A stretch of 64,000 nt of DNA from Candidatus Aenigmatarchaeota archaeon (GTDB lineage: Archaea > Aenigmatarchaeota > Aenigmatarchaeia > GW2011-AR5): positions 14,107-78,106 of the forward strand of contig JACPDL010000004.1 of assembly GCA_016184005.1 (NCBI GenBank), written 5' to 3'. Positions within the stretch are counted from its first letter, which is position 1; each line of letters begins with the position of its first letter. Of the stretch, positions 512 through 59,498 are shown piece by piece. A program made the position numbers and the translations under genes. Below the pieces are notes generated by a model that ran no database searches, was not told the origin of the DNA, and worked only from the letters and a program-made list of their open reading frames with translations.

Positions 512-605
512 GCTACAATATCTATAGGAGGTATCGGAACTCGGTATTGTCTGGTTCAATCTCGGCACAATAACCTGCTACAATATCTATAGGAGGTATC
601 GGAAC
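512..605. repeat. CRISPR-like mini-array: two perfect 29-bp direct repeats (GCTACAATATCTATAGGAGGTATCGGAAC) separated by a 36-bp unique spacer
   Basis: Seen directly: repeat at 512-540 and at 577-605, spacer 541-576. No cas genes in the window. Confidence 0.45.
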
Positions 606-1083
606 CTAGGTTCTGATGCCGGGGAAGAGATATTCTAAGCGTTTCTTTTCCAGGGTTTTCTTTTTGAAAGAAAAGCCTTTTCGAACTCTTGAAGGCACTA
701 AGCCACAGGATTTCTATCACAGCAGCAGCCTTACTGCGTTCTAGACTTAAGCTGTGTCTTAAGTAAGGCCCGATTATTTCTTTCGCAATAACCGTCCTGC
801 CCCTTTGGCCATTCCCTAGCTCTTTTGCTTAAACTGGTTTTTCGCAAGCGTTTTTGCGCGCTTTTCCCGCTTTTTTCAGTTTTTTTCAGTTTTTTTCCGC
901 AAGCGCTTTTTGCGAAGCAAAAAGGGCTTCTCGGGAACCCCGGCCCTGCAATTATAGTCATGCAAAGAAAGAATCGATATATACTTTCTTTGCTGACTAT
1001 ATGTGAAGCAAATAAATTATATCCTGTTTATTTATTTGCTTCACTATAATCTTGGAAAGAAGGAATTAAAAGTAGTTGTGCGT

Positions 1084-3939: not shown

Positions 3940-4251
3940 GATTAATCACTAGATATATGCGTATACTTCTGCTTTTTCGGTCGCTGATAAAACCTCGTGC
4001 CTGTAAAGGGCTCTTATTGATTCCGCATAATTGTGCCGGCCAGGCGAATCAGGCTGCGTGGATTTATATCCCGCCACCGTGTCCCTGTTTCTTGCTGAAA
4101 AATGTCGTTTTGCATCAGCAAGACATCTCTTTCCGCCCGTCCTGAAAGCTTCCTGAATAGCACCCCTGAAAAATATCTTGGGAGAAGCTTCGCTTCTCCG
4201 AGATTCCAAAAAGCTGCGCTTTTTGAGAATCTTGTGTGCCTGAAGCGTCAT

Positions 4252-4921: not shown

Positions 4922-5110
4922 TTATGCACCGCATCTTCTGTAAACAAGCCTTATGAACCATTCACGAACCAAGGATGGCGGCGCTCCTTGCGCATCCATG
5001 TCTCTTGAAAAAAGTTCGTATGCCTGCCTGGCTCTTTCATCCGACCCCACTCGTTTTGCAACCCGTTGCCGGATATCTTCTTGAAATGCAGTTTCGTATG
5101 ATTCTCGCAT
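4922..5110 (-). CDS. small hypothetical protein (62 aa) embedded between rps28e and rpl24e
   Basis: Using the internal Met of ORF 4922..5155, the ORF exactly fills the gap between the S28e stop (5112) and the L24e start (4919) on the same strand. Confidence 0.35.
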   Translation of the reverse strand: MRESYETAFQEDIRQRVAKRVGSDERARQAYELFSRDMDAQGAPPSLVREWFIRLVYRRCGA

Positions 5111-5111
5111 T

Positions 5112-5318: not shown

Positions 5319-5417
5319 ATTATCACGTTATTTTGGATGCAAATTTCTCAAAAAGCGCAGCTTTTTGGAATTCCCGAAATCCAAAGGATTTCGGAGTTTC
5401 TCCGAAGATATTCTTGA

Positions 5418-6872: not shown

Positions 6873-7021
6873 GATTAAGAAAATGCCCGAAATGCAGCAG
6901 CTATTCGCTTAAGCATGTATGCTGCGGCTCGGCAACAGTCAGCCCGCATCCGGCGAAATATCATCCTGCCCGCGCAGCTTATCTGCGCCTTGCAAAGAAA
7001 CTTGAACATAAAACAGATTGA
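6869..7021 (+). CDS. nop10: H/ACA RNP protein Nop10 (below the ORF-track size cutoff)
   Basis: ATG at 6869 overlaps the aIF2alpha stop; the product MRLRKCPKCSSYSLKHVCCGSATVSPHPAKYHPARAAYLRLAKKLEHKTD has the Nop10 zinc ribbon. Confidence 0.65.
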   Translation: MRLRKCPKCSSYSLKHVCCGSATVSPHPAKYHPARAAYLRLAKKLEHKTD

Positions 7022-16082: not shown

Positions 16083-16084
16083 TT

Positions 16085-16225
16085 TATGAGAGAAGGTTGA
16101 TACATGGCAGATCTAAGATCTGCCTGTACAGGTGGAACTTTGTTCCATCATGCAAGGATGAGATGAGTGGAATGAAGTACCAAAGGTACTTCTAGCTGCT
16201 CGTTCTCGACTTATAAGTAAATCTT
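16085..16225. repeat. structured repeat element A (GAGARGGTTGATAC ... AAGGATGA ... hairpin ... GGTTCTCGACTTAT)
   Basis: Shares 5' and 3' terminal motifs and an internal AAGGATGA box with the elements at 17140-17283 and 17285-17400; the variable internal hairpins differ by compensatory changes. Confidence 0.45.
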
Positions 16226-16837
16226 CATTAGCTTTCGTGTCGTCATCATTACGAAAAAGAAAGAAAGCAAGTACCATCCAAGCCACCTGAGTTCATTCCC
16301 TACAAACGGCGCTTGAAATGGGAGCAGGGCTGCGACCGGCGAGACCTTTACGGCATCACCAGCTACTGCTGCGTCAAAAACATTTTTTCTTTCCTCTAGT
16401 CTGCAGGGCATTTCGCATGTTTTGCCTTCAAACGATACGGAGTTCCCCTCAACTGCAATTGAACCGCCGTTGAATAAAACTTCCCCTTTCCCGTCTGTAA
16501 GTTCTATTATCTTTTCCCCGTAAACGGCCCCTATCCATGGAACCGAGACAAGCGTTATTATCATGGATATAATCATTGGCTTGAAAGACATCCTCATTAT
16601 TTTTCCCTGTTCCTTCATGACTTCTTTGAACAGCACATCAACTTCAGTTTTGTTCTGCGATTTCTGCTGTTCTTTCATCTTCGCATTAAGTTCCTTGATC
16701 CTTTCCCTGGAAGCTTTTGCGTCCTGCTGCTTTACCAGCAGCTTGTAGAAGATGTTTACTACAACTGCCGTGAGTATTGAGAACAAGATTATATCAGCGG
16801 TTATTGAAAAAAATACCATATTTTCACTCCTTGACAA
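16211..16837 (-). CDS. DUF106/EMC3-like (YidC/Oxa1-related) membrane protein
   Basis: 208 aa: TM helix, K/E coiled-coil (KELNAKMKEQQKS), then a TM hairpin, the architecture of archaeal DUF106. Confidence 0.45.
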   Translation of the reverse strand: MSRSENMVFFSITADIILFSILTAVVVNIFYKLLVKQQDAKASRERIKELNAKMKEQQKSQNKTEVDVLFKEVMKEQGKIMRMSFKPMIISMIITLVSVPWIGAVYGEKIIELTDGKGEVLFNGGSIAVEGNSVSFEGKTCEMPCRLEERKNVFDAAVAGDAVKVSPVAALLPFQAPFVGNELRWLGWYLLSFFFVMMTTRKLMKIYL

Positions 16838-17108
16838 ATTCCAGTTTTTTAACCCTGAAACCTTCTCCTATTGAATGCTTCTTCTTGCATTCTGCGCACG
16901 TATAGCGCAGGTCCAGCTTCCTTGTAGGCTTTTCCCTTCCTTTTGGATTTTCTTTCGGGAAAGAACCGTAACCTGCAAGCTTTCTCAAGAATCTTCTCTG
17001 GCTTTTTGTATTCTGCCTTCTAGGCCGTCTTTTCGCCTCATCTGCCGTATGCTCGGTGTGTTTCTTGCAGAACGGGCAGTATCTTTTCTGTTTTTTTGGC
17101 ATTTTCAT
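16824..17108 (-). CDS. rpl44e: ribosomal protein L44e
   Basis: MKMPKKQKRYCPFCKKHTEHT...YTCAECKKKH has the L44e zinc ribbon. Confidence 0.8.
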   Translation of the reverse strand: MKMPKKQKRYCPFCKKHTEHTADEAKRRPRRQNTKSQRRFLRKLAGYGSFPKENPKGREKPTRKLDLRYTCAECKKKHSIGEGFRVKKLEFVKE

Positions 17109-17139
17109 GTTGCATCAAACTTTTTTCCGTTTAATATCT

Positions 17140-17283
17140 TTAATTAGGAGAGGAGGTTGATACGTGCAGAAAGCTTCGCTTTCTGACGTGCCAGAGAAGC
17201 TATGCTTCTCTGAGCAAGGATGACGGATGGAATGAAGCACCTCTGGTGCTTCTAGCCACTTGGTTCTCGACTTATTAATATTT
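17140..17283. repeat. structured repeat element B (same family as 16085-16225)
   Basis: AGGAGAGGAGGTTGATAC...AAGGATGACGGATGG...GGTTCTCGACTTAT; the inner hairpin is GAAGCACC/GGTGCTTC where element A has GAAGTACC/GGTACTTC. Confidence 0.45.
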
Positions 17284-17284
17284 T

Positions 17285-17400
17285 ATTTAGGAGAGGAGTT
17301 TGATCTTCAGAAAGCAAAGCTTTCTGAGATGCCAAAGACATTTACGATGTCTTTGAGCATAAGGATGAGAACCTAGGTTCTCGACTTATTCTTCAACTGT
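17285..17400. repeat. structured repeat element C (same family, shorter)
   Basis: AGGAGAGGAGTTTGATC...AAGGATGAGAACCTAGGTTCTCGACTTAT. Confidence 0.45.
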
Positions 17401-20522: not shown

Positions 20523-20649
20523 GGATCAATTAACCAAGAATAAGCTTAAATTCTCAAAAAGCGCAGCTTTTTGGAATTCTCGAAATCCAAAGGATTTCAG
20601 AATAGGCGTTCCTGCGAGCAGTTTCTGCCTGTATGCTGCTGCCATAGAA

Positions 20650-22154: not shown

Positions 22155-24578
22155 ATGGTGCGTCTTGACAGGATAACCATGCAGGGCTTCAAGAGCTTTG
22201 CCGGCAAAGTGACCGTCCCGTTCCCTGCAGGCTTCAATATAGTCTGTGGTCCGAACGGCTCAGGCAAGTCCAATATAGTCGATGCACTAACATTTGTTCT
22301 CGGCACTGCATCGGCGAGAAGCATCCGGGCGCAAAAGCTCCAGAACCTTATCTTCAACGGGGGCGCTGACAAGAAGCCCGCCGAATTTTGCGAGGTTACA
22401 CTTTATCTCGACAACTCCGACAACAAAATACCGACAAACGAGACCGAAGTAAAAATCACTAGGCGAATAACGCGGTCTGGAATAAGCGTATACAAGCTTA
22501 ACGGCCGGACAGTCACAAGGAACAAGATCCAGGATTTGCTGGCAAATGCAAACATGTCTTCTGACGGCTATAACATCATCATGCAGGGCGATGTAACAAG
22601 GATAATTGAAATGGGCCTGCAGGAAAGAAGGGAGATAATAGATGAAGTTGCGGGGATAAAGGAATTCGATGAAAAGCGCGAGAAAGCAACAAGGGAGCTG
22701 GAGCGTGTAGAGCTGCGTGTCAGGGAAAATATGATTGTTGTTGCAGAAAAACAAAGATATGTCCAGCGGTTGAAAACAGAAAAGGAAATTGCAGAAAAAT
22801 ACGTTGATCTCAGCGAGAAATTACATATTTACCGTGCATCTTCGTTGCATAAAAAACTGACGGAGGCTGAGGAAAAGGGGGCTGTCATAGACAACGAAAT
22901 TAATGAAAAAACTTCTCTTTTTGAAGAAAAATCAAGGGTTTTTGAAGAATCTGAAAAGGATCTGGAAAACAAGGAAAAGGCAATGAGGAAGATAGACGAT
23001 GAAATAATGCAGAAGACAAAGAACATAGATATTTTAAGAAAAGCCGATGCCATCCGTACAGAAATAATCAGAAAGAAAGACAGAATTGATTTTAATGAAA
23101 GAGAAATATCCAGGCTAAAGGAATTTGAGGTGCCTGAAAGGAATGCTGCTATTAAAGAAATCCTCGCTATGAAATCGCCGGGGATTCACGGGACAGTTGA
23201 TTCGTTGGTTGATGTCCCAAGCGAGTATTCCACAGCAATCGAGGTAGCTATAGGCAGGCATTCAAAAGATATTGTTGTTGCGGACCATGAAATAGCAACA
23301 GGCTGCATAAAGCACCTGAAAGCTAAAAAGATTGGACGTGCCCGTTTCCTGCCGCTGGATAGGATAAGGGGCAGGGAAAAGAAAGAATACAAGGGAAAAG
23401 AACACATAATAGGTTATGCAATAGATTTAGTCAGATATGACAGGAAATTTTCTCCTGCAATAGAATTCGTTATTGGTTCTACTTTGGTTGTAAAAAATAT
23501 AGACATTGCAAAGAAAATCAAGGGCTTCAGAATAGTCACGCTTGATGGCGATTTGGTCGAGCCTTCTGGTGCAATGATAGGCGGATTCTACAGGAAACAG
23601 CACCGAGAATCTTATGCGGCCAAGATAAGGCAGCTTGGGGAGGATAGTGAAAGGCTTGAAGACGAAATAAGATCTTTGGACAAGGAGCTTGGAAAGTATA
23701 ATCTGCAGGACAAGGGAGAAACTGCAAATGTACGGGAAGACAAGATAAAGATAGAAAAAGATATCGAGTCCGCAAGAAAAAGATGGAAAGACATGTTTGA
23801 GGAAAAAATGATACTGCAGAATAGTATAAGCAGACTGAAGATCGAAAAGGCAAGGATAGAAGCTAATCTTGATAACCTGAAAGTAGAAATGGAAGAATTC
23901 AAGGAGGTAAAAAATTTTGAGGAAGGCTCTGTTGACCTTTTACAGGAAAAAGTGAGGCATTTTGTAGCAGAGATTAACAGGCTTGGGCCTATTAACATGA
24001 AAGCTCTGGAAGAATACAAGACACTGAATGTAGAATTCGAAGAACTGAAGAAGATCTTGGATAAGCTCCTTGAAGAAAAAAATGCAATAGTGAAAATATC
24101 AGAGGATATCGAAAAGAAAAGATACGACAAGTTCATGGAAACTTTCACTGAAATAGCTGCAAAATTCTCGACAATATATTATGATATGTCAGGCGGAACA
24201 GGGAGACTAAGGCTTGAAGAAGAGAACAAGATTGATTCCGGCCTGATTATTGAAGCCAATCCTTCAGGGAAAAAAGTCCTTAACTTGGACAGCATGTCGG
24301 GCGGAGAAAAGACGCTGACGTCCTTGGCGTTCCTTTTTTCCATTCTGCAGCATTACATGACGCCGTTTTATGTCCTGGACGAAGTGGATGCAGCCCTAGA
24401 CAAGCCGAACACAAAGAAGATAGCTGACCTGATCAAGAAATACTCAAAGAACGTGCAGTTCATCGTCATAAGCCACAATGACCTGACAATATCTGAGGCC
24501 GACAAAGTTTTCGGCGTGTCGATGGAAAACGGCGTTTCAAAGGTCTTTGGAATAGAATTGCCTGTGGCTAGCGAGTAA
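22155..24578 (+). CDS. smc: SMC-family chromosome segregation ATPase (short, 807 aa)
   Basis: N-terminal Walker A GPNGSGKSN, central hinge IHGTVDSLVDVPSEYSTAIEVAIG, C-terminal LSGGEKTLTSLAFLFS signature and Walker B YVLDEVDAALD. Confidence 0.8.
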   Translation: MVRLDRITMQGFKSFAGKVTVPFPAGFNIVCGPNGSGKSNIVDALTFVLGTASARSIRAQKLQNLIFNGGADKKPAEFCEVTLYLDNSDNKIPTNETEVKITRRITRSGISVYKLNGRTVTRNKIQDLLANANMSSDGYNIIMQGDVTRIIEMGLQERREIIDEVAGIKEFDEKREKATRELERVELRVRENMIVVAEKQRYVQRLKTEKEIAEKYVDLSEKLHIYRASSLHKKLTEAEEKGAVIDNEINEKTSLFEEKSRVFEESEKDLENKEKAMRKIDDEIMQKTKNIDILRKADAIRTEIIRKKDRIDFNEREISRLKEFEVPERNAAIKEILAMKSPGIHGTVDSLVDVPSEYSTAIEVAIGRHSKDIVVADHEIATGCIKHLKAKKIGRARFLPLDRIRGREKKEYKGKEHIIGYAIDLVRYDRKFSPAIEFVIGSTLVVKNIDIAKKIKGFRIVTLDGDLVEPSGAMIGGFYRKQHRESYAAKIRQLGEDSERLEDEIRSLDKELGKYNLQDKGETANVREDKIKIEKDIESARKRWKDMFEEKMILQNSISRLKIEKARIEANLDNLKVEMEEFKEVKNFEEGSVDLLQEKVRHFVAEINRLGPINMKALEEYKTLNVEFEELKKILDKLLEEKNAIVKISEDIEKKRYDKFMETFTEIAAKFSTIYYDMSGGTGRLRLEEENKIDSGLIIEANPSGKKVLNLDSMSGGEKTLTSLAFLFSILQHYMTPFYVLDEVDAALDKPNTKKIADLIKKYSKNVQFIVISHNDLTISEADKVFGVSMENGVSKVFGIELPVASE

Positions 24579-27236: not shown

Positions 27237-27416
27237 ATGGCTTACGTTAGATACAAGCTGCCTGAAGAGACGCACAAGATATTAAGAAAAGTGTGCAAAA
27301 AACTCGGGACGAAAGAATCAGAAATATCCAGGATAGCACTGATGGAATACCTCAAATCCCTGGGCTTGCTTTCAGAGAAAGTCAGGAGGATGAAGCTGAT
27401 AAGGTGGGGCAAATGA
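27237..27416 (+). CDS. ribbon-helix-helix (CopG/Arc-like) DNA-binding protein, 59 aa (below ORF-track cutoff)
   Basis: MAYVRYKLPEETHKILRKVCKKLGTKESEISRIALMEYL shows the RHH beta-strand plus two helices. Confidence 0.5.
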   Translation: MAYVRYKLPEETHKILRKVCKKLGTKESEISRIALMEYLKSLGLLSEKVRRMKLIRWGK

Positions 27417-27434
27417 TGTTGTCTTTGTACGACC

Positions 27435-27570
27435 ACCGACTTCAGTCGGTGGTTTCTTGAGACAACAGCATCCCAACGGCATTGAGCTTCACATGGTGGA
27501 ACTTCGTTCCACCTATGCAGGAAAAGCTTCGCTTTTCCAAGCATCTGCTGCCTAAAGGCAGCAGTTTTCA
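27435..27570. repeat. compound stem-loop element (CSL family), variant copy
   Basis: Outer stem CCCAACGGCATTGA/TCAATGCCGTTGCGG encloses inner hairpins CACCGACTTCAGTCGGTG and CTGCCTAAAGGCAG. Same architecture as 36555-36676 with compensatory base changes in the outer stem. Confidence 0.55.
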
Positions 27571-27586
27571 ATGCCGTTGCGGATGA

Positions 27587-28060
27587 TCAAGCCAGGGTCT
27601 TTTTCATAAGGTACCTGTGATATCCGATACCGTGATAGTCCTGCTCGAGTTTCTGTATCCTGAACCCGTGTTTTGAATACAGGTTTACAGTCGCGAGATT
27701 GAGGGGGTCTACGGTGGCAAAAACTGCCTGGGCAGACCGGCTCTTCAGCAAATCCAGAAATTTGCTGATCAAGACGGAGCCGATGCCCTTTTTCCTCAAA
27801 GATTCGTCAACGCACATGCTAAGAAGCCAGCCTTCTTTTTTCTCATGTTTCACGGCGCCTAACAGATAGCCAATAATATTTTTGTCAGCATCCCTGCAGA
27901 CCAGGAATGTATCCCCGAATAGCTCGGCAGATTGCCTGAAGAAATAGCGCGGATAGCCGTCAATGCCAAATATTTCTCTTTCGAGTTTGCAGAGTTTTTC
28001 TATATCATGCTTGAGCCTTTTCATATCGAGAAGCTCTATGACTATTTCTTCTTTTTGCAT
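27587..28060 (-). CDS. GNAT family N-acetyltransferase
   Basis: 157 aa with the acetyl-CoA-binding motif RKKGIGSVLISKFL. Confidence 0.75.
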   Translation of the reverse strand: MQKEEIVIELLDMKRLKHDIEKLCKLEREIFGIDGYPRYFFRQSAELFGDTFLVCRDADKNIIGYLLGAVKHEKKEGWLLSMCVDESLRKKGIGSVLISKFLDLLKSRSAQAVFATVDPLNLATVNLYSKHGFRIQKLEQDYHGIGYHRYLMKKTLA

Positions 28061-29672: not shown

Positions 29673-29739
29673 ACAACAATACCACTATTTTTAGTGACAG
29701 AGAATCTTAAATCATTATGTCAAGGACAGCCGTCCCCTA

Positions 29740-29860
29740 AGATGATATGCTCTTAATACTCCCACGACTAAAGTCGTGGGTTTCTGAGAGCATGTCATCC
29801 CAACATTGTTTATGTAATATCTGCTGTCTAAAGACAGCAGTTTTAAGCAATGTTGCGGAT
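29740..29860. repeat. compound stem-loop element (CSL family) copy
   Basis: CACGACTAAAGTCGTG hairpin, then ATCCCAACATTGTTTATGTAATATCT GCTGTCTAAAGACAGC ...AAGCAATGTTGCGGATAA. Confidence 0.55.
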
Positions 29861-29954
29861 AACTTTGTTAGATAGGTGGTATGTTCAGGTATCACTGTGG
29901 TATTCTCTATCCCGGAAAGCAAAGCTTCCTGCAGATTTGCCCGCTTTTTGATTT

Positions 29955-32023: not shown

Positions 32024-32213
32024 AAATCCTCTATGTTACCATCAACTAATTCGAGAAAAGCAAAGCTTTCCTGAATTTCTCAAAGGGTTTCTGTGAAATC
32101 CTTTGCAGAAAGGTTGATGGTTTCTTTGTGGATTTCTTTCAAGAACATTGCTTTCATCTACTATCTGAAGATAGTAGTTTTTAATGTTCTTAGAATAAGG
32201 CTGCTTTTGCAAG

Positions 32214-36547: not shown

Positions 36548-36554
36548 GGTGAAA

Positions 36555-36676
36555 TCATATCGTTCTTGATATAACCCACAACTTTAGTTGTGGGTTTGTT
36601 GAACGATGTGATCCCAACATTGTTTATGTAGTATCTACCGACTAAAGTCGGTAGTTTTAAACAATGTTGAGGATAA
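36555..36676. repeat. compound stem-loop element (CSL family), near-identical to 44098-44222; its 3' end abuts the osmC start codon
   Basis: ATCATATCGTTC..[ACCCACAACTTTAGTTGTGGGT]..GAACGATGTGAT then CCCAACATTGTTTA..[ACCGACTAAAGTCGGT]..TAAACAATGTTGAGGATA followed by ATG at 36676. Confidence 0.6.
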
Positions 36677-37206
36677 TGACTATACATGAAGATGATATGA
36701 AACTAAACAATGTAGACATGAACAAGGCTGGCGCTTTTTTGGAAGAGGTAAAGGCCGACAGAAACAAGGCAATAAAAATAAAGCGCGTGGAAGGCGAATG
36801 GAATTTCTCGGGTGTGCAATTCGCTGCAACATTAGAGCATGCGACTGGAAAGACTATCGTTGAGGCAGACGGCCCTCCTATAATGGGCGGCTCCGGTTTG
36901 AAGCCCGACCCTGTGCAGTACTGTTTGTTTGGCCTTGCAGCATGCTTTGCGCAGACATTCGCGTCGATAGCTGCCGAAAAGGGCATTGAGCTCAAGCGCC
37001 TGAAGGTGTCTGCAGAAAATAAAGTCAACCTGTCGAGGTCTTTGGGAATTGGCGACGAGCCGATAGTGGAAAATGTGAAACTATTTGTCACTGCTTCCGG
37101 CAGCGGCGACCTGAAAGAAGTGGAGCAGCTTGCGAAGGATAGGTGCCCGGGCGTTTACTGCCTGACGAACCCGATAAAACTGGATATAGAAAGCGACTTC
37201 TCCTAA
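36676..37206 (+). CDS. OsmC/Ohr-family thiol peroxidase
   Basis: GGSGLKPDPVQYCLFGLAACFAQTF and CPGVYCL motifs carry the two conserved Cys of OsmC/Ohr. Confidence 0.7.
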   Translation: MTIHEDDMKLNNVDMNKAGAFLEEVKADRNKAIKIKRVEGEWNFSGVQFAATLEHATGKTIVEADGPPIMGGSGLKPDPVQYCLFGLAACFAQTFASIAAEKGIELKRLKVSAENKVNLSRSLGIGDEPIVENVKLFVTASGSGDLKEVEQLAKDRCPGVYCLTNPIKLDIESDFS

Positions 37207-37414
37207 GGAATAAACGGTGACCTGCCATAGCCCGTCATTAAAACTGTAATCTGCCGACTAATTCATGGAGAGCAAAGCTCTACTGAATTCATTAGAAAAT
37301 CTGTAAGATTTTCTATGCACCGGAATAGCTATGCTATTCCGAGTGTCTCAAAGGGCTTCATACGAAACCCTTTGCAGAAAAGTCGGTAGTTTTAAACAAT
37401 GTTGGGGATAATTA

Positions 37415-38099: not shown

Positions 38100-38290
38100 T
38101 GCGGCTGAATGTTTTCCGGCTGCATGCGTTTATCTTGGGAGAAGCGAAGCTTCTCCCAAGATATATGGCAGAAACTTCGTTTCTGCCTATACAGGCGGAG
38201 CTTTGCTCCGCCATGTTCCCTAAATCCTTTGGATTTCGGGAATTCCAAAAAGCTGCGCTTTTTGAGAATGTTGGTTTTCCTGTTGCCCTT
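38100..38290. repeat. cluster of short hairpin repeat modules (HPR family)
   Basis: TTGGGAGAAGCGAAGCTTCTCCCAAG, CAGAAACTTCGTTTCTG, GGCGGAGCTTTGCTCCGCC, CCGAAATCCAAAGGATTTCGG and CCAAAAAGCTGCGCTTTTTGAG; the same modules recur at about 10 other sites. Confidence 0.6.
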
Positions 38291-44097: not shown

Positions 44098-44222
44098 AAA
44101 ATCATATCGTTCTTGATATAACCCACAACTAAAGTTGTGGGTTTGTTGAACGATGTGATCCCAACATTGTTTATGTAGTATCTACCGACTAAAGTCGGTA
44201 GTTTTAAACAATGTTGAGGATG
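44098..44222. repeat. compound stem-loop element (CSL family), near-identical to 36555-36676
   Basis: About 120 nt nearly identical to the osmC-upstream copy; ends AAACAATGTTGAGGATGAGC. Confidence 0.6.
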
Positions 44223-44271
44223 AGCATAAAGGTGGCCTGCCATCAAGGATGCGGAGAAGGAAGGCGGCTGC

Positions 44272-44691: not shown

Positions 44692-45204
44692 AAGGATACT
44701 TGATGCAGGAAATTTAAATATAGCCCGGCCAGATAAGGTGGGAAAAAGAAGCGGTGACCTGCCATAGCCCGTCTTCTGTAAGCCCTCTTTTGCTTCCTGA
44801 GAAGTTTTCTTTTCCCAGGGGTTTTCTTTTGCAAAAAGAAAAGGCCTTGCAACATTTGTCTGTGCGTTTGAAACTTACACCCGCGTGTAGCAGGCCGTTT
44901 CAACTGGTCGCATGTTTTACCACGCACGGCATATCACAGCGTTTGCTCTATGCCCCAGTATCGTTTCTGTTCCTGCCAATGACTTCTCAGCCATGCAATT
45001 TGCTTGCCACGCCTTTTCACAAGGGGCAATGACACAGCGAAGCCGCGTCAGTCCTTCTCATGAGAGTGGACAGAGCTTCCTCAATCAGAACCTATGGTTC
45101 CGATACCTCCCTTTAGGAAGGATTTCAGATAAAGTTCCGACCGGTGGTTGCTTGACAGGTCACCGAGGATATAATGCTAGAGAGGGTTAATAAAGATTTG
45201 GGAT

Positions 45205-45859: not shown

Positions 45860-46058
45860 CATACCACACCACCAAATGACCAGCTAGTAAATTCTCAAAA
45901 AGCGAAGCTTTTTGGAATCTCGGAAAGCTATGCTTTCCCGAGATAGCTTAATCTAATATCCATTTTAGGATTCCCACAGAAATCCCACACCCTTAACACC
46001 GTTATTATGGTTTTGCGGGTTTATATTGATTTCTCTGATCAAGAGGCTAGATGTTAAC

Positions 46059-46379: not shown

Positions 46380-46515
46380 AATATATACGATTTTCTCTTG
46401 GGAGAAGCGAAGCTTCTCCGAGATCTTCGGAGAAACTCCGTCTCTCCGAGATTCCGAAATCCTTTGGATTTCGAGAATTCCAAAAAGCTATGCTTTTTGA
46501 GAATTTAGCAGGTTA
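46380..46515. repeat. HPR hairpin-module cluster
   Basis: TTGGGAGAAGCGAAGCTTCTCCGAG, CCGAAATCCTTTGGATTTCGAG and CCAAAAAGCTATGCTTTTTGAG, the same modules as at 38100-38290. Confidence 0.55.
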
Positions 46516-46539: not shown

Positions 46540-46735
46540 AGAAATCATATCTTCTTAATATACCACCGACTAAAGTCGGTGGTTTGTGAGAAGATGTGAT
46601 CCCAGAGACATTGTGTTTCATCTGCTGTCTAATCCTAAATCAAGCAAAGCTTGATTTGAATTTCTCAAAGGATTTTGAAGAAATCCTTTGCAGAAAAGAC
46701 AGCAGTTTTCAATGTCTCTGAGGATAATTAGAGTA
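46540..46735. repeat. CSL-family element carrying inserted HPR modules, abutting the 23S 3' end
   Basis: ACCGACTAAAGTCGGTGG, then outer stem CCCAGAGACATTG...CAATGTCTCTGAGGATAA enclosing HPR hairpins. The outer stem covaries relative to the other copies. Confidence 0.55.
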
Positions 46736-47136
46736 AAGCAGAATTCACAGGTCCGGAGGCCAAGAATATATCTTGGATCGCAAAGCCGCAACTGTGCGAT
46801 TTTAAAGGCTAGCATTGGCTTAGGAGAGCATGAGCTGAACATCTCGCTTGCGCTTGATGCGTACACCCTGCTTCCATATCTGGTCGTCTTCCAGCGCCGA
46901 TTGCCTCTTTTCGAGAGTGGCTTGGGGCTTAGATGCCTTCAGCCCTTATCCACATGGGGCGTGGCTACCCGGCGATGCCTTGTCAGACAACCGGTACACT
47001 AGAGGCCCCGAAAGGATGTTCCTTTCGTACTTATCCTTCCTTTCTCTCAGGCAAAAACACCTCCAGCAGATATAGACCAAACTGGCTATGGTGCCAATTC
47101 TGCAAGATAATTAAAGCTAAGTTCAACTGAACTAAG

Positions 47137-47793
47137 CTAAAGCATAACATCAGAACTCACAGAAACGGTCACACCGTTCTGAATTGCTGAAGAATCAGGA
47201 ATCCATTTTTTTATCAGAATATCAAATTTTCTCTGTTTTTCTGGGTGTGGAATTTGTATTGTTTTATAGAATTTCAATACATCTTCCTTTCTACCTATTC
47301 TTAAGATAAACTCGGTTTTGTTTTTTTCTAGAAAACATGTTGATTCTATATCCATTTCTCTTAGAACGTCTTTAAACCACATTATCATTTCTTGGTTTTT
47401 TGACCAGATTTCTACTTTTGCTCTCATTCTATCATGAGTAACGCTTCCATCGCCAGCTATCCATCCACACAAATAATCTTTTCGATTTTTTATGGAAAAT
47501 AGTTGAGGTGGTTTAATTGTTTTTGATTTTGCGCCCGCTGGAATGTTATATTGCTCCACAAGCGTTTTCCATAAATCTCGTGAAGCTACGCGAACTACAT
47601 ACTTACCATCACTAAAACCTGATGAAATAAAAGAAATCTTTGGTGTCTTTTTTGTATTTGCAATAAACAGAGGAATTACAATTCTTTCTAGAAATTCTAA
47701 ATCTTTGTTTATTACATAAACTGAATAGCCACCTAATTTTTGTATGTGACCGTCACTTCCAACTATTCCAGCTAGCAAATCTAAATCAGACAT
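47137..47793 (-). CDS. LAGLIDADG homing endonuclease (double-motif) encoded in a 23S rRNA intron (intron about 47118-47835)
   Basis: LLAGIVGSDGHI and LCGWIAGDGSV motifs about 100 aa apart. The flanking exons join as ...AGCTGGGCAAGAATCAGG / CCAGTTTGGTC, corresponding to the E. coli 23S region around position 2593. Confidence 0.8.
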   Translation of the reverse strand: MSDLDLLAGIVGSDGHIQKLGGYSVYVINKDLEFLERIVIPLFIANTKKTPKISFISSGFSDGKYVVRVASRDLWKTLVEQYNIPAGAKSKTIKPPQLFSIKNRKDYLCGWIAGDGSVTHDRMRAKVEIWSKNQEMIMWFKDVLREMDIESTCFLEKNKTEFILRIGRKEDVLKFYKTIQIPHPEKQRKFDILIKKWIPDSSAIQNGVTVSVSSDVML

Positions 47794-49039
47794 GTCTAAC
47801 TTTTATTAGTTTGTTTTATACTGATTTCTATATTGCGTTAGATAGTATATAGATATCCTGATTCTTGCCCAGCTAACGTGCCCTTTTAATCTGTGAACTC
47901 CAGCACCCTTGGCTGCTGCTGCACAGCCAGGAGAGGACGAGCCGACAGCGACGCCGCAACGCACGGGGTCGATTTGTTCTCCGCATTGCATGGAATAAGC
48001 GTAGTAACGCCAATTTCATTGCTAGGTAAATCAACACTTATCCTGATACTAACGCCAATTTTCATTGTAAGCTTTTTGCTTAACTCTATCGGTTGAGGGT
48101 ATCAGGATTCGCCTAATCAGCCTGAGCACATCTGAGCTCTTCGTTTGGCTAAAACTGCTAAGGCAAAGATAGCTCTGAATAAGTTTTGATTAAGCTAACT
48201 TTGACTTCCAATTAAAGAGTCAGACTTTCAGGCCTGCGGATAAGAACTCTCACCCGCCACGACACCATTATCCCCGAGGTAGCTTTTCTCATGTCACAGT
48301 CAGCCATCTAGGCCAAACTGCGTATCGCTAACTCACGCTTTCACGGTTGGACACCATTATGTTAGGAGTCCAATCAATGCAGCTTTTGCGTTTGCACTCT
48401 ACCCGCGATTTCTGACCGCGGTGAGCTGCACTTTGAGGGCCTTTGATATAACCTCGAGCATCGCAAGGGATTATACATGCTATGCTTGATACAATTTCAA
48501 AGGCGTACCGCCCCAGTCAAACTATCCACCTGCTGCTGTCACGCTTTCGCGTTAAGCAGTAGAGTCAAAAAAGGGTAGTGTTACATTGTCGCCGAAGCTC
48601 CTACCTACACTATACAATCCCAACTCAACCACAACAACAAGCTATAGTAAAGCTCTACGGGGTCTACTCTTCCCACTGGAGGTCTCTGGCCTAATCACCA
48701 GAACAATAGTTTCGCCGAGTTCCAGTTCGGGACAGCACCCATCTGGTTAATCTATCATGCAGGCCAACTGTTACAGCCTTTTCCTCATAATATGCTTTCT
48801 TTTTCCCAAGGGTTTCTCTTTGCGAAAGAAAAAGGCTTATTTAATTGGCAAGGGATTTAACGAATCCTCTAACATGACGTTTTTAGTCGTGATAGGATTT
48901 TACGCTACCTTAAGACCCTCAGAGTTAGGGCCGGCCTACAGCGGGGCTTCGACCGGTTGAAACCAGTTTTAACACACCGCTAGTGGCCACGACTCGCTGG
49001 CTATACTAAGCCTTTCGGCTTTGCAGCCAGCTATGTTTG

Positions 49040-49591
49040 TTAACTCCGAAGAATAGGTTTCCTTATCTTGATTCCACGGACGCTTTTCCTGAAAATTTCT
49101 ATAGATTTCGCTCTGTATATCTGAACTCCAAATATTTTGCCGAATCTATAGATTTTGCAGGTCAAACCTTGCTTGCTAAGGAACTCTGAAATTGCTTCCA
49201 GAAGCTTGAGGTGGCTGTTATAGATTACAATTCTGTCTGTAACAGTCCCTTCTGCGTCAAAAAATCCTGAAATGAAATCCCATTTATCTTTATCCTGTAG
49301 ATTATCAAAAAACTCTACAGGATTTTCTCTTAGGATCTCGAATTCTTTGTACAAATTTTTGGAATAAACTAATGATCTAGTCTTATCCAAAAATCCGTAC
49401 TGATGAACTCGTAATTCCATTTCTCTGAATTTTTTAGACGCTTCTTCGGCAATTTCCTTATTTCTGTTGCACTGATCTATCCATACTGCGAACGCACGAT
49501 TCTTTCCGTGATTCATCGTACCGTCGCCGTACAGCAGACCTGCAAGGTAAGCATCCATCAAGAATTTACATGCTGCGTGGCACATAAACAT
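49040..49591 (-). CDS. LAGLIDADG homing endonuclease (double-motif) encoded in a second 23S rRNA intron (intron about 49030-49615)
   Basis: LAGLLYGDGT and ISGFFDAEGTV motifs. The ORF begins right after the exon sequence GGACTGTTTAACAAAC (the conserved GACUGUUUAAUAAAAACA region). Confidence 0.8.
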   Translation of the reverse strand: MFMCHAACKFLMDAYLAGLLYGDGTMNHGKNRAFAVWIDQCNRNKEIAEEASKKFREMELRVHQYGFLDKTRSLVYSKNLYKEFEILRENPVEFFDNLQDKDKWDFISGFFDAEGTVTDRIVIYNSHLKLLEAISEFLSKQGLTCKIYRFGKIFGVQIYRAKSIEIFRKSVRGIKIRKPILRS

Positions 49592-52500
49592 TTCTGTTTT
49601 CTACTCTTCAGGTTTGTTAAACAGTCCGATGGATCTTGTCACTGCGACCTGCCCATCACTGAGCAGGCACGTCATATACCTAAGATACGACGCTAATTTG
49701 CCGAGTTCCCTAAACTGGATTATCTCGAACACCTTCGCCTTCTCGGCGAGGGGCACCTGTTTCCCGAATCCTTTCCGTAAACGCTTTTCGCGTGAGTCGG
49801 AAAGGGTTTGTCGGTTCTGAGTACGAGCGTTCAATGTCATAACATACCAGGATTTTCAAGGGCTCCAGGAATTATCCAAAGCCGCCATACGGCAGCCTTA
49901 TCGCGCCTTCCCAAAGTTCTCGTCATGATGACACTCCCTTTGGTTGAGCGTTTAAACATAGCGACAACCATGTTCGGACTATCCCGAAGCGTCTCCGGTA
50001 TGGTAAACATAGAGCGGTTCGGGAATATTAACCCGATCTCCATTCGCGCACTTCTTCTTAAGGGTGCACTTAGGCTCGACTTACCCCCAGCAGATAAACT
50101 TTACTGGGGAACCCTTGCCCCTTAGGTGGACGAGATTCTCACTCGTCTGAATTGCTACTCCCGGCAGGATCTTCATTGCTGCTAGGTCCACACCCGCTTA
50201 CGCGGACGCTTCTGCCCTCGCAGCACGCCTCCCTACCACATGCAGTTTGCTGCATGTCATTTGTATCGGCAAGGGACTTAGCCCCGTCCATTTTCCCCGC
50301 CCTGAAGCTCGGTGGGTCCGCTATATCGCGAGAAGCCCCTTCTCTTGTAAGAGAAAGGCCCTTGGGTTCAAAGAGAACTTTTACTCGCTTCGCTCGAATA
50401 TTATATTTTGTAATAATGCGAACACAGCGAGCCCATTAGTTTTCTTTTCCCAAGGTCTTTTCTTTTCTGCAGAAGACGAACGTCTTCTGCAGAAATCCAA
50501 GAAGCTTTTGCTTCTTAGGATTTGCAAAAAGAAAAGCCTTCTTTACGCGTTGTTTGAAGGGTGGCTGCTTCTAAGCCTACCTTCCCACTGTCTGAGCTTC
50601 AAGACCAAGTTCGATACACTTAGTCCCTATTTAGGGGCCTTAACAAATGTCTCGGTTGTTTCCGTCTCGGATGCCAAACTTACTCCAGGCACCCTCACTC
50701 CCGCCTGCGCAACAGCAGATTTGGAGTTTGACAAGGTGGTTGGACCTCTCGGCCCTTAGCCATCTAATCAGTGCTCTACCCTGCTGTCAGCCATAGGCGA
50801 GGCTGCACTTAGATGCATTTCGGGAGGAACCAGCTATCACCAGACTCGATTGGCTTTTCACCCCTAACCCCAGGTCACCCGACAAGTTTGGACTATGTTC
50901 GGTATCAGGCCTCCATTTCGCTTTCGCGAAACTTCACCTTGCCCAGGGCTAGATCGTCTGGTTTCGGGTCTCAATCCCGTGACTAATCGCGCGTTAACAC
51001 GACGAACCTTGTTGCCTGCGTTCTATCGCTTTCGCTTCGCATTTCTGCTCGCCACGAGAATGAACTCCCTGCCCCGTTTTTCGAAACGGACGACGGAATC
51101 ATCTGCTCTTGCGAGCAGCGTTACCCGTCTAACTATAGGTACCTGGTTTCAGGCTCTTTTTATTGGGTGTTACCCCTTCTTTTCAGCTTTCCGTCACCGT
51201 ACTACTGCGCTATCGGTTTCAGGCAGTATTTAGGATTGGATCTAGATGAGACCCGTATTCCTGCTCCTAATTCAAGAAACAGTACTCTGGATACTCGCCA
51301 TTCACCTTCTCAACTTCGGATACGCGGCTGTCACGCTTTGGCGCGCTGCTTATGCTGAAACTTTTCAGAAGTTTTTGATCAAACTTTTTCTAAAAAGTTT
51401 ATCCAGCAGACTTCTCCTCGTTGAATGAGGCAAGACACGAGTCCAAACACCACATTGCTTTGTCTTTTCAGCAAAGCTTCGGTTTGTCCTTTGCTGCTTT
51501 CACTCGCCGTTACTAACAGCATCGCAATTGCTTTCTTTTCCTGGCCGTAATAAGATGTTTCAATTCTGGCCGTTCGCCCTCCCTTGCGGGAGTATACAGG
51601 ATGTCCCATTCGGCAATTCTCGGTTCGAAGACTGCATGCGTCTCGCCGAGACTTTTGGCAGCTTACCACCGCCTTCGTCGCCACCTGAACCAAGCCATCC
51701 ACCAAATACCATGGGAGCTAGCTATCTTTACCTCCGGACCTGTGACCGCTTCATATGTTTTTGAAAAGGAAAACGCTAAAAGCGTATTCCATTTGCTCTG
51801 CGCTTAACCCAGCAAATTTCTTCGTGGGCCGCAATCATACTAGATGATTATGAAATTACCAGATATTTTTGAACGATCAAAGCTTCATTCGACATTATTC
51901 ACATCTTGTTAACACTGTTCAGAATTAGACAGAGAGAAAGCATAGATACGTTCTTGATTTTGCCATATGCCATCTACCTGCTGCAAACTTCGTCTTTTGC
52001 CACAAAGACCAAAGCCACTCTGAACAGCTTTCGGTAGTTCAACTTTATTGTAGAAATGCAGGATTTCTGACCCTGCGTAACCAGAAGTAATGTATAAAAA
52101 TATAAAAAGGTTTGGGTGGGCTCAATAAACAAGTTCTGGATGATCTTTGCGCAAAAAACATCTTATAGCTGGAACAAGTTGCATAACTACTGCGTCATCT
52201 TGTTTACGAGCAAAGACATCGTAATGAAATTCTCCATGAGTTACTGTACGAAGATATGTTAATTCTGGGTTTAACGCACCCTTGCGCTCATTTTGAGAAT
52301 GAACGAATTCTTCTGCCGTGAATGGTCACTAATTAATCTATTGTCCAGAACCCCTTTATTAATTTTCAAAGTATGAAGAAACACGCAAATTTAAAATCAG
52401 AGTTCATACAATTAAGATTCAAGCGGGGGTTCCCTAGCCTGGTCAACAAATCCCTTTCTTTAAAGAAAGGTCTTTGTATGTCCCAAAGAACATTTGGGAT

Positions 52501-52753
52501 ATTAATTTGACTATTGGGGCAAGGTTGAGGGCCTTGTGACTTAGTGTCTACGAGAGTTCAAAGAAGCCCTTTTTCCTAATGAAATGACGTACCATAGGTA
52601 CGTCTTGGTGTTTGAAAAAGCGCTTGCGGAAAAAGAATTAAGAAGAATGAGAAAGGGTTTGGAAATTCTCTCCCCCCGCATTTTTAATCCAAATGTTTGG
52701 TACGAAGTCAGGCTTAAATTAGTTTTTAGCTTTAATTAAAATTAAAGAGCGGG

Positions 52754-53791: not shown

Positions 53792-56406
<2,615 letters not shown>

Positions 56407-56636
56407 TAAATTTTTTATATGCAAGGTCATGATAGGCGCCAAATCGCAGAAGCTGCGGCTTCTGTGTTTTTCCAGAAACCTTTTTCTGAGAAAATCTTCG
56501 TGCTTCTGTCAAAACTTGTCAAGGACCACCGTCTGAAGACGGTGGCATGCTGAAATTGGTGAATCCTTGAGCATCCCGCATTCCACCTTGAACCACTGTT
56601 TGAAAACAGTGGAATGCAAGATTTCCAAGAAGGTAT

Positions 56637-59307: not shown

Positions 59308-59498
59308 GGGCCGGTAGATCAACACAAATCCCTTTCTTGAAAGAAAGGTCTTTGTAATGCTCAAAGAACATTCAAAGATATTAGGGATTTTGGGAGAAGG
59401 AAGATCGCTTGCTTTGCAATAACCTTTCTTAAAAAGAAAGGTTAATCAAAGAATAACTGAACAGCAAGAGGCTCTGGGTTCAAATCCCAGCCGGTCCA
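59308..59498 (+). tRNA. probable tRNA-Ala(UGC) with two introns (D-loop and canonical 37/38)
   Basis: Acceptor GGGCCGG (59308-14) pairs 7/7, with one G-U, to CCGGTCC (59491-97), followed by discriminator A. D-stem GATC (59317-20) pairs GATC (59403-06). Anticodon stem CTTGC (59408-12) / GCAAG (59464-68) with loop TTTGCAA. T-arm CTGGG-TTCAAAT-CCCAG (59474-90). Intron 1 is about 80 nt and carries HPR hairpins; intron 2 is about 44 nt and carries the CCTTTCTTAAAAAGAAAGG hairpin. Confidence 0.35.

Follow-up and report, generated by a model that had tools for sequence, protein, structure and literature searches.

A 64,000-nt stretch of the genome of a Candidatus Aenigmarchaeota archaeon (the whole stretch is hereafter called the window) carries short hairpin-forming repeats in its intergenic DNA, among them a composite element at 38132-38270, and hairpin-bearing insertions in its rRNA and tRNA genes. 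Both are best explained jointly, with a probability that we put at roughly 0.6: the intergenic arrays would be non-autonomous mobile DNA repeats, and the rRNA and tRNA insertions would be introns bounded by bulge-helix-bulge (BHB) motifs that gather hairpins. The best-supported reading of the repeats is that they represent several families of small, non-autonomous, hairpin-forming mobile elements, which appear to have expanded recently in this lineage, and the rRNA insertions are most likely archaeal spliced introns, predicted to be unusually numerous and built of hairpins.

The host is a DPANN archaeon represented by a metagenome-assembled genome (MAG) from groundwater, with ~45% G+C and a genome of ~1 Mb. 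The window is assigned to Aenigmarchaeota and DPANN because of archaeal rRNA matches in Rfam and because the NiFe-hydrogenase large subunit encoded beside 38132-38270 is 100% identical to a Candidatus Aenigmarchaeota MAG protein, the next-nearest relatives of which are also Aenigmarchaeota. Comparisons were made with a sister population, consisting of the MAG JAGVVX01 and Joint Genome Institute (JGI) metagenome contigs from several samples (e.g., L023, L030, L038, L045, and L061), which is 84-99% identical to the window in syntenic blocks and 99-100% identical in rRNA exons. More distant relatives (e.g., L001 and L004; 77-82% protein identity) were compared at syntenic loci.

When perfect hairpins (stem of at least 8, loop of 0-8) were counted, with ten dinucleotide-preserving shuffles as control, 74 were found in the whole window and 5-17 per shuffle; hairpins with 3-nt loops (34 versus 1-3) and 2-nt loops (21 versus 0-2) were likewise in excess. 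The pervasive and modular hairpin repeats described in the initial annotation are thus real, and its example sequences and nearly all of its listed sites could be located. It had described every module as a perfect hairpin, but many modules carry a one-base bulge in the lower stem, and the hairpins present at the listed sites belong to several kinds of repeat rather than to one family. Hairpin density amounts to 11.6 per 10 kb, versus 1.7 per 10 kb in the syntenic loci of the more distant relatives. At 38120-38280, five hairpins stand in tandem (38131-38163, 38167-38187, 38194-38212, ~38217-38241, and 38246-38264), and folding of this region as single-stranded DNA yields -50 kcal/mol versus -18 +/- 3 for shuffles (z = -10.9). 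The element located here lies where a 127-aa gene and the hydrogenase gene converge with their 3' ends; in the relative L004 (77% protein identity), these two genes are separated by only 2 nt. Four independent short-read assemblies of this strain all end within the last module of the element, ~50 nt beyond the hydrogenase stop, as expected of a multi-copy repeat.

The element at 38132-38270 belongs to a family, termed M1-M4, whose members measure 55-140 nt and combine, in a set order, as many as four distinct hairpins with bulges (Table 1). The hairpins are M1 (ATCTTGGGAGAAGC-nnn-GCTTCTCCGAGAT), M2 (CTTCAGAGAAAC-nnn-GTTTCTCTGAGAT), M3 (TCCGAAATCC-TTT-GGATTTCGAGAA), and M4 (TTCCAAAAAGC-nnn-GCTTTTTGAGAAT), each with a 3-nt loop, an upper stem of 8-9 bp, a short lower stem, and a bulge of one base. 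Besides the full-length form M1-M2-M3-M4, the short forms M1-M4 and M1-M3-M4 were seen, and the ends of the element read ATCTTGG... and ...TTGAGAAT. A hidden Markov model (HMM) built from full-length copies and run with nhmmer on the window and on ~400 kb of partly redundant related sequence gave 58 matches in the latter, with 19 distinct full-length sequences that are ~90-98% alike, and six copies in the window, all of them intergenic, compared with dozens of copies in the sister population. An Rfam search returned chance-level matches only and no family that accounts for any of the repeats, and the hairpin elements had no counterpart among viral contigs or in the records of phages and plasmids.

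Movement of these elements is indicated by comparison of strains, as the presence of copies differs between near-identical strains at clean sites. A 108-nt M element at L023 2801-2909 falls exactly between window positions 7009 and 7010, with no base duplicated or lost, and for a second one (L023 5738-5847) the corresponding window site at ~9743 is empty. At 46395-46505, sister contigs carry the M element on the opposite side of a small palindrome and in inverted orientation. The same holds for other units described below: of the ~125-nt units termed class B, the one at window 46542-46728 is missing from L030, L038, and L061, another, which L023 carries at 1547-1673, has no counterpart at window ~5870, and a 93-nt unit (952-1049) has a 99% identical copy at another site of the sister strain, which is empty at window 7915. 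The spacer between the ribosomal protein genes S13 and S4 (window 3940-4251 versus L045 2797-3033) is wholly unrelated in the two strains, in which both genes are 92-97% identical; the open reading frame (ORF) 3949-4251, which spans modules and was initially taken to be spurious, is thus not conserved. Such empty and filled sites are expected of mobile DNA, and the initial view of the modules as mobile is borne out by them. Among the flanks of 39-40 distinct M insertions, the left side has T at -1 in 39/39 and A at -2 in 23/39, and the right side follows the consensus A-T-n-T-T-G (39, 25, -, 34, 23, and 25 of 40). At 7009/7010, the empty site already contains the right-flank bases, so that this consensus looks like a target preference rather than element sequence. 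Loop triplets differ among otherwise identical copies and are often reverse complements of each other (GAA/TTC, TGC/GCA, TAC/GTA, TCC/GGA, and TTT/AAA) with unchanged stems; therefore, the palindromic hairpins invert.

In the mechanism that we propose, M elements, class B units and other small units would be copied into new intergenic sites in either orientation and would also be inserted into unpaired loops of other repeats. Movement would take place as single-stranded DNA hairpins, a step that we infer from the lack of target duplication, the bulged hairpin ends, the DNA-type loops, and the loop preference. Regarding the loops, 21 of the 44 hairpins with three-base loops (stem of at least 7) close as GC-NNN-GC, and 13 of these 21 carry GNA or its complement. 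GNA loops of the d(GCGAAGC) type form unusually stable DNA mini-hairpins, RNA preferring tetraloops, which would point to DNA hairpins here. Mobilization would presumably occur in trans by an enzyme, as for the bacterial repetitive extragenic palindromic (REP) sequences and bacterial interspersed mosaic elements (BIMEs) and for the ends of IS200/IS605 insertion sequences. No transposase was found among the neighbors of the element copies in the window, in Woesearchaeota, and in L030; the Woesearchaeota copies are flanked by housekeeping genes, and a 1.6-kb extra segment of L030 gives only a weak HNH match.

M4, the last module, has a distribution beyond the lineage. An exact-pattern scan of GTDB species genomes yielded 22 loci, of which 13 lie in the Aenigmatarchaeota MAG JAGVVX01 and two in another uncultured archaeon, while five are located in a Woesearchaeota MAG, one in a Nanoarchaeota MAG, and one in a Lachnoclostridium MAG. 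In the Woesearchaeota MAG (JACPID01, 31% G+C; L014, L019, L024, L025, and L032), the 25-nt M4 hairpin is part of a ~200-nt intergenic repeat, where it adjoins unrelated hairpins, and in the Nanoarchaeota contig L029 it is preceded by a different hairpin with an A/T stem. The sharing of M4 across Aenigmarchaeota, Woesearchaeota, and Nanoarchaeota may reflect a common recognition or functional core, and a convergent terminator-like hairpin is equally possible.

This distribution bears on a rival explanation that we consider unlikely, namely that the hairpin arrays are selected cis elements, which serve as bidirectional terminators, mRNA 3'-end protectors, or binding sites of a conserved DPANN protein. 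The 3' arm of M4 has a T5 run on both strands, the single exact M4 match in the Lachnoclostridium MAG adjoins a typical bacterial terminator, several copies lie between convergent genes (e.g., 38132-38270), and the M4 hairpin recurs between housekeeping genes within differing intergenic repeats of the Woesearchaeota and Nanoarchaeota MAGs, all of which would suit such a role. However, M elements are also placed between tandem and divergent genes and within the S13-S4 operon spacer, in both orientations, and copies come and go between near-identical strains while the neighboring genes stay unchanged. Moreover, close relatives are devoid of elements at corresponding sites, and full-length copies share 90-98% identity, as would be expected from a burst in the recent past.

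Template switching is well known as a mutational process that corrects quasipalindromes, and it could be argued that the hairpins were formed in place during replication instead of being moved from elsewhere. This would agree with stems that are perfect even in divergent copies, loops that flip between copies, new hairpins that are nested in loops of older ones, and the unique sequences of most mini-introns, yet template switching cannot give one ordered 110-nt composite of four hairpins, or 99-100% identical units of 93 and 125 nt, at many unrelated loci, and as a general explanation it is improbable. It may nonetheless contribute to hairpin growth inside introns and to the upkeep of perfect stems.

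With mobile repeats as the preferred reading of the intergenic DNA, the rRNA genes can be considered. An Rfam scan detected an archaeal 23S gene (minus strand) together with a 16S gene (plus strand), each of which greatly exceeds its model in length. The gene ends given by Rfam are truncated due to terminal introns: a match to the bacterial model covers the 23S 3' end past a LAGLIDADG ORF, and the 16S gene ends at GGATCACCTCC (~56407). The two genes are unlinked and divergently oriented, and between them they hold 17 predicted introns of 34-684 nt. Insertions were mapped by alignment with haloarchaeal and Escherichia coli operons and inspected for the canonical BHB motif, in which a 4-bp helix between two 3-nt bulges is accompanied by a further helix and the cut falls after the second bulge base. 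At least 13 of the 17 inserts have a canonical or one-mismatch BHB motif, and predicted splicing restores universally conserved rRNA sequence at the junctions. The introns account for 42-44% of each gene span, with 2081 nt in the 23S and 1144 nt in the 16S; their in silico removal gives rRNAs of 2841 nt and 1472 nt, respectively, with leftover insertions of at most 16 nt relative to haloarchaeal rRNAs. BHB inserts would be cut from the transcript by the tRNA-splicing endonuclease, after which the exons would be ligated.

Further support for introns comes from the sister population. The 43-, 81-, and 684-nt introns of the 23S gene are missing from L030, and the allele without introns is identical to the sequence predicted after splicing, so that the comparison of insertion sites with relatives, which the initial annotation had proposed, speaks for splicing. 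The 81-nt intron and the 684-nt LAGLIDADG intron (47088-47168 and 47184-47867) are present or absent together. Conversely, two introns of the sister population are absent from the window, namely one of ~600 nt with a LAGLIDADG ORF (L030 811-1411, window ~48271) and one of ~742 nt (L038 2513-3255). The latter inserts at window 48906/48907, near the 23S site of the group I intron that was reported in one Aenigmarchaeota 23S gene (PMC6125680). With the Rfam covariance model, no group I intron was found in the window at the gathering threshold, nor at E <= 5 over 26000-47800, the rRNA region beyond 47800 having been searched at the gathering threshold only.

Whether the 16S and 23S inserts are instead expansion segments of the kind known from Asgard archaea or eukaryotes, which the mature ribosome would keep, had been raised in the initial annotation. 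Two inserts do lie in the variable 16S helices h17 and h21, where additional RNA might be tolerated, and the insert at 54737-54810 lacks a clear splicing motif. However, several others are located within functional loops that are universally conserved (the 530 loop of the 16S, the 23S H44 loop of the GTPase center, H71, and the surroundings of the peptidyl transferase center), and the BHB motifs together with the intron-less alleles that equal the predicted spliced product identify the inserts as likely introns, which makes retention in the ribosome very improbable. The idea that modules invade the rRNA itself is therefore not supported, since every large insertion is bounded by, or compatible with, a BHB motif and removal gives rRNAs of normal length; the hairpins noted in the 23S gene (48790-48850 and 50440-50530) and the 16S gene (54218-54285 and 54497-54600) are present, but all lie inside predicted introns. 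Although short-read contigs break at repeats, neither the hairpin repeats nor the intron-bearing rRNA genes are chimeric assembly artifacts, as the independent MAG JAGVVX01 and the multi-sample JGI contigs carry these elements in the same surroundings as well as the same intron-bearing 23S gene, at 95-99.7% identity.

The tRNA genes appear to be interrupted in a similar manner. ARAGORN found no tRNA in the raw window, and a strict BHB search of two candidate genes gave no clean tRNA; only brute-force removal of two segments worked, which recovered tRNA-Ala(UGC) with two hairpin-rich introns, one of ~65-70 nt in the D-loop and one of ~44 nt in the anticodon loop, in line with the modules that had been noticed in putative tRNA-Ala introns. 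This gene and a second multi-intron tRNA gene (52425-52682) have a 49-nt stretch of the D-loop intron in common (90% identity). The tRNA intron boundaries are approximate.

The overlap between intergenic modules and introns is smaller than the initial annotation had suggested, but, to judge from the sequences, it is not zero. Most mini-introns are unique sequences, and the HMM search of the window found zero M1-M4 copies in rRNA or tRNA genes. What is shared, apart from the part of the tRNA intron, comprises a 19-21-nt hairpin and a 24-nt motif. The hairpin, CAGAAAGC-GAA-GCTTTCTG of the 122-nt 16S intron, is found 100% identical at window 17167, within the units at 16083-17400, and at three sister loci. 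The motif, TTCTTTTCCCARGGNTTTTCTTT, is located at 642, at 44806 in the 3' trailer of RNase P RNA, and in the 23S introns of helix 71 (48798) and helix 44 (50442), which amounts to five matches at four sites versus 0.02 expected by chance. TTTGCAGAA has 10 occurrences where 2.2 would be expected, among which are those at either end of one 16S intron, at the start of a second 16S intron, and in three loop modules of class B. In the 219-nt helix-44 intron, a 57-nt block of two hairpins occupies the apical loop of an older hairpin and is absent from sister contig L038, the flanks of which are ~99.5% identical. Intron interiors would thus be neutral ground that gathers the same kind of hairpins, with at least one recent nested insertion; we propose that introns accumulate hairpins because their interiors are free to vary. 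Beside these motifs, window 513-608 contains a ~80-nt insertion relative to L045, which holds a tandem duplication of CTACAATATCTATAGGAGGTATCGGAAC, has no RNA family match, and sits just upstream of 560-950, the region bearing the 24-nt motif common to the rRNA introns.

Several observations weigh against the joint reading of mobile repeats and hairpin-gathering introns. The splicing of rRNA and tRNA inserts is predicted from sequence, and among the rRNA inserts 54737-54810 has no convincing motif, while 54216-54282 and 55440-56032 have relaxed motifs only. The insertion signature is based on few events: target-site duplication is excluded at 7009/7010, whereas other events are ambiguous for AT and some are equally compatible with AT duplication. 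The M4-like hairpin in unrelated Woesearchaeota and Nanoarchaeota repeats could indicate conserved function rather than selfish spread. The orientation of M elements relative to flanking genes (8 versus 3) has no significant bias, and compensatory stem changes were seen in 4 of 43 pairs among M copies that are too similar for covariation to tell whether structure is selected. Finally, a motif scan (HuH...Y) for an IS200-type Y1 transposase gave no match in 531 kb, a part of the genome, which makes it a weak negative.

Apart from the M family, the window contains class B units, each of ~125 nt and consisting of two hairpins with an internal loop and an AA-centered apical loop. Five to six copies are present in the window and further copies in the sister genome; all lie on the plus strand irrespective of the direction of neighboring genes, and their lower stems vary between copies by compensatory changes. 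Class B could consist purely of mobile DNA or represent a gene for a small RNA. This second type of repeat includes or encloses the hairpins listed initially at 32055-32125 and 37295-37385. Small hairpins recur in unpaired parts of other elements: hairpin II of class B has them in its apical loop (37260-37412 and 46620-46700), and they are also found in an internal loop at 27480-27545 and in a loop of the 16083-17400 units. The latter are three intergenic copies with the conserved sequence AGGAGAGGAGGTTGATAC ... GCAAGGATGAG ... GGTTCTCGACTTATT and no Rfam match; each holds an ORF of 18-20 codons after a GGAGG-like site. The internal loops of class B resemble degenerate C/D-like motifs (UGAUAU / CUGA). 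C/D-box, H/ACA, and K-turn RNAs were considered for class B and the 16083-17400 units and set aside, as the motifs are too degenerate by eye, and an IS110 bridge RNA was rejected for class B, since no recombinase is encoded beside it, the neighboring ORFs specifying a citrate transporter, an epimerase, OsmC, and an acetyltransferase. Intergenic M elements and class B loop insertions were also considered as RNA-level introns, which was rejected because no BHB motif was seen by eye at their ends.

Table 1. Repeat elements, rRNA and tRNA genes, and predicted introns in the window. A middle dot marks the predicted splice junction.
Feature	Position	Strand	Remarks
Composite element, expanded copy	38132-38270	+	M1, M2-like, one extra hairpin, M3-like, M4; HMM match
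Full-length composite	46395-46505	+	M1-M2-M3-M4; 111 nt; HMM match
Short form	4175-4231	+	M1-M4; spacer between ribosomal protein genes S13 and S4; HMM match
Partial composite	5344-5409	-	M2-like, M3, M4; HMM match
Partial composite	20549-20603	-	M3-M4; HMM match
Partial composite	45890-45933	-	M4 and variant hairpin; HMM match
Class B unit	29739-29863	+	RNA fold z = -10.3
Class B unit	36552-36678	+	98% identical to 44098-44225
Class B unit	44098-44225	+	98% identical to 36552-36678; missing from corresponding spacer of relative L001
Class B unit	46542-46728	+	Two extra hairpins in apical loop of second hairpin
Class B variant	27410-27587	+	Two small hairpins inserted in internal loop
Class B second-hairpin half	37260-37412	+	Four hairpins inserted in apical loop
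Two-hairpin unit	952-1049	+	93-98 nt; 99% identical copy elsewhere in sister strain
Intergenic unit, three copies	16083-16210, 17140-17275, 17280-17400		Strand not assigned; conserved ends, differing inner hairpins
23S rRNA gene	46805-51726	-	4922 nt; 10 predicted BHB introns
23S intron	51352-51401		50 nt; near E. coli ~295; motif GCUG/CAGC
23S intron	50325-50543		219 nt; helix 44 loop; CGCG[UAA]...CGCG[AUA]; spliced GCGUA·AUAGC
Nested block in 219-nt 23S helix-44 intron	50467-50526	-	57 nt; two hairpins; in apical loop of older hairpin
23S intron	49762-49808		47 nt; near E. coli ~1610; motif CCGA/UCGG
23S intron	49039-49613		LAGLIDADG ORF
23S intron	48857-48900		
23S intron	48768-48837		Helix 71
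23S intron	48448-48490		43 nt; absent from sister strain
23S intron	47974-48241		
23S intron	47184-47867		684 nt; LAGLIDADG ORF; absent from sister strain
23S intron	47088-47168		81 nt; 15 nt downstream of LAGLIDADG intron; absent from sister strain
16S rRNA gene	53792-56407	+	2616 nt; 7 predicted introns
16S intron	54216-54282		Relaxed BHB motif
16S intron	54331-54418		88 nt; 530 loop; spliced GCGGUA·AUAAC
16S intron	54495-54616		122 nt; helix 21 (variable); spliced GGUGAA·AUC; 16S module insertion of the initial annotation
16S intron	54737-54810		No convincing BHB motif
16S intron	54995-55028		34 nt; near E. coli ~908; spliced GGCUGAA·ACUUAAGGGAAUUGGCGGGGGAGC
16S intron	55440-56032		192-aa ORF; relaxed BHB motif
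16S intron	56079-56244		166 nt; near E. coli ~1370; helices of 8 bp (outer) and 12 bp (inner)
tRNA-Ala(UGC)	59308-59498	+	G3:U70, anticodon TGC; recognized after in silico removal of two segments
Second multi-intron tRNA gene	52425-52682	+	Leu-GAG by eye reading only

Further features of the window touch on these subjects. An archaeal RNase P RNA at 44836-45061 on the minus strand reaches only 43.9 bits, below the gathering score of 84 in Rfam, and lacks several regions of the model. It has the look of a reduced form and is directly followed by a hairpin module. This module, listed initially at 44795-44855, is present at the 3' end or trailer of the RNA but lies outside any gene. The 14-nt sequence CGGTGACCTGCCAT occurs once in the window (44753-44766), and similar motifs adjoin two class B units (37218-37240 and 44232-44244). 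In sister contig L030 (4042-5628), it flanks as a direct repeat the 1.6-kb extra segment, which contains two ORFs, one of them giving the weak HNH match, and this arrangement resembles a site at which a small cassette integrates. A 186-nt segment without hairpin character at 4926-5111 is missing from the corresponding place in L023 and L045. The SMC protein encoded at 22155-24578 has only 807 aa and a much shortened coiled coil, which is consistent with a reduced DPANN genome.

The hairpin repeats and introns are a new variant of kinds already known, related to REP/BIME sequences, to transposable elements of the miniature inverted-repeat type (MITEs), and to BHB introns, rather than a new class. 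Like REP/BIME sequences, including the REP doublets forming hairpins (REPINs) that depend on REP-associated tyrosine transposases (RAYTs), the repeats are short (20-40 nt), imperfect, intergenic palindromes in many copies, which form composite mosaics of hairpins with bulged bases, show no obvious target duplication, and carry no internal transposase. In contrast to REP clusters, where one REP alternates in orientation, four different hairpins follow here in fixed order and one orientation. REP palindromes are defined by a GTAG or CGTC tetranucleotide at one end (PMC3733652), whereas M elements have neither end tag. Likewise, no RAYT (Y1/HUH) gene was seen in the 531 kb scanned, part of the genome; REP/RAYT systems are on record for bacteria alone, and when complete genomes were surveyed, bacteria were the only source of REP-associated Y1 proteins, archaea having just the IS200-type Y1 subclass (PMC6006769). 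MITEs, including the archaeal SM elements of Sulfolobus, are similar in being 50-150 nt long, non-coding, intergenic, structured, and strain-variable, with nested insertions, but the terminal inverted repeats of M elements are weak and arise only since each end is itself a palindrome, the cleanest M insertion lacks a target duplication, and no parent insertion sequence is present in the window or the comparison loci. With non-autonomous elements derived from IS200/IS605 (similar to palindrome-associated transposable elements), the hairpin ends and the lack of target duplication of M elements would agree, and the flank consensus A-T-n-T-T-G agrees only in part. Mobile hairpins are also familiar from mitochondria and other organelles, such as the double-hairpin elements of Allomyces and chytrids, the GC clusters of yeast, and the palindromic repeats of Volvox organelles. 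These spread through intergenic DNA, introns, and tolerant parts of rRNA, often nested, much like the hairpins of the window, but they belong to another domain of life and have no sequence relationship, and the rRNA copies described here are inside predicted introns and not in variable parts of the rRNA.

For the rRNA introns, the closest parallel is found in Thermoproteales, where BHB introns occupy conserved loops of rRNA genes, some being hairpin-shaped and below 50 nt and others carrying LAGLIDADG genes, and where tRNA introns lie at non-canonical positions and have sequence common to different genes. Short hairpin BHB introns were described in thermoproteal 16S genes, the variable regions of which are intron-free, and in Pyrobaculum a hairpin intron was co-converted with a neighboring endonuclease intron (PMC4496867), to which the joint presence or absence of the small intron at 47088-47168 and its endonuclease neighbor is comparable. 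In contrast, the host here is a mesophilic-type DPANN archaeon with 45% G+C, 17 predicted introns in a single 16S/23S pair make up 42-44% of each gene, some of them in variable regions, and the introns appear to be built largely of tandem and nested hairpins. A limited literature search, which is no proof of absence, found no report linking DPANN archaea with such repeats.

Since gene callers will yield false ORFs over hairpin arrays, rRNA and tRNA finders fail in this window (ARAGORN finds no tRNA and Rfam truncates both rRNA genes), and the repeats break short-read assemblies, DPANN genomes of this kind will be under-annotated and fragmented. A genome of ~1 Mb, which would be expected to be streamlined, tolerates a recent burst of hairpin repeats, and more than 40% of the length of its rRNA genes consists of predicted introns that vary between near-identical strains, making this a natural system for following the turnover of introns and repeats in archaea. 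More speculatively, and in our view doubtfully, the repeats might constitute an undescribed archaeal counterpart of REP/RAYT or IS200-end systems, with M4 as recognition core, which would insert preferentially into single-stranded loops and could thereby enlarge and perhaps found rRNA and tRNA introns, as the splicing endonuclease would remove anything bounded by a BHB motif. If true, this would extend the biology of REP/RAYT-like single-strand hairpin transposition to archaea and would establish a direct connection between a DNA parasite and the gain of introns in this domain.

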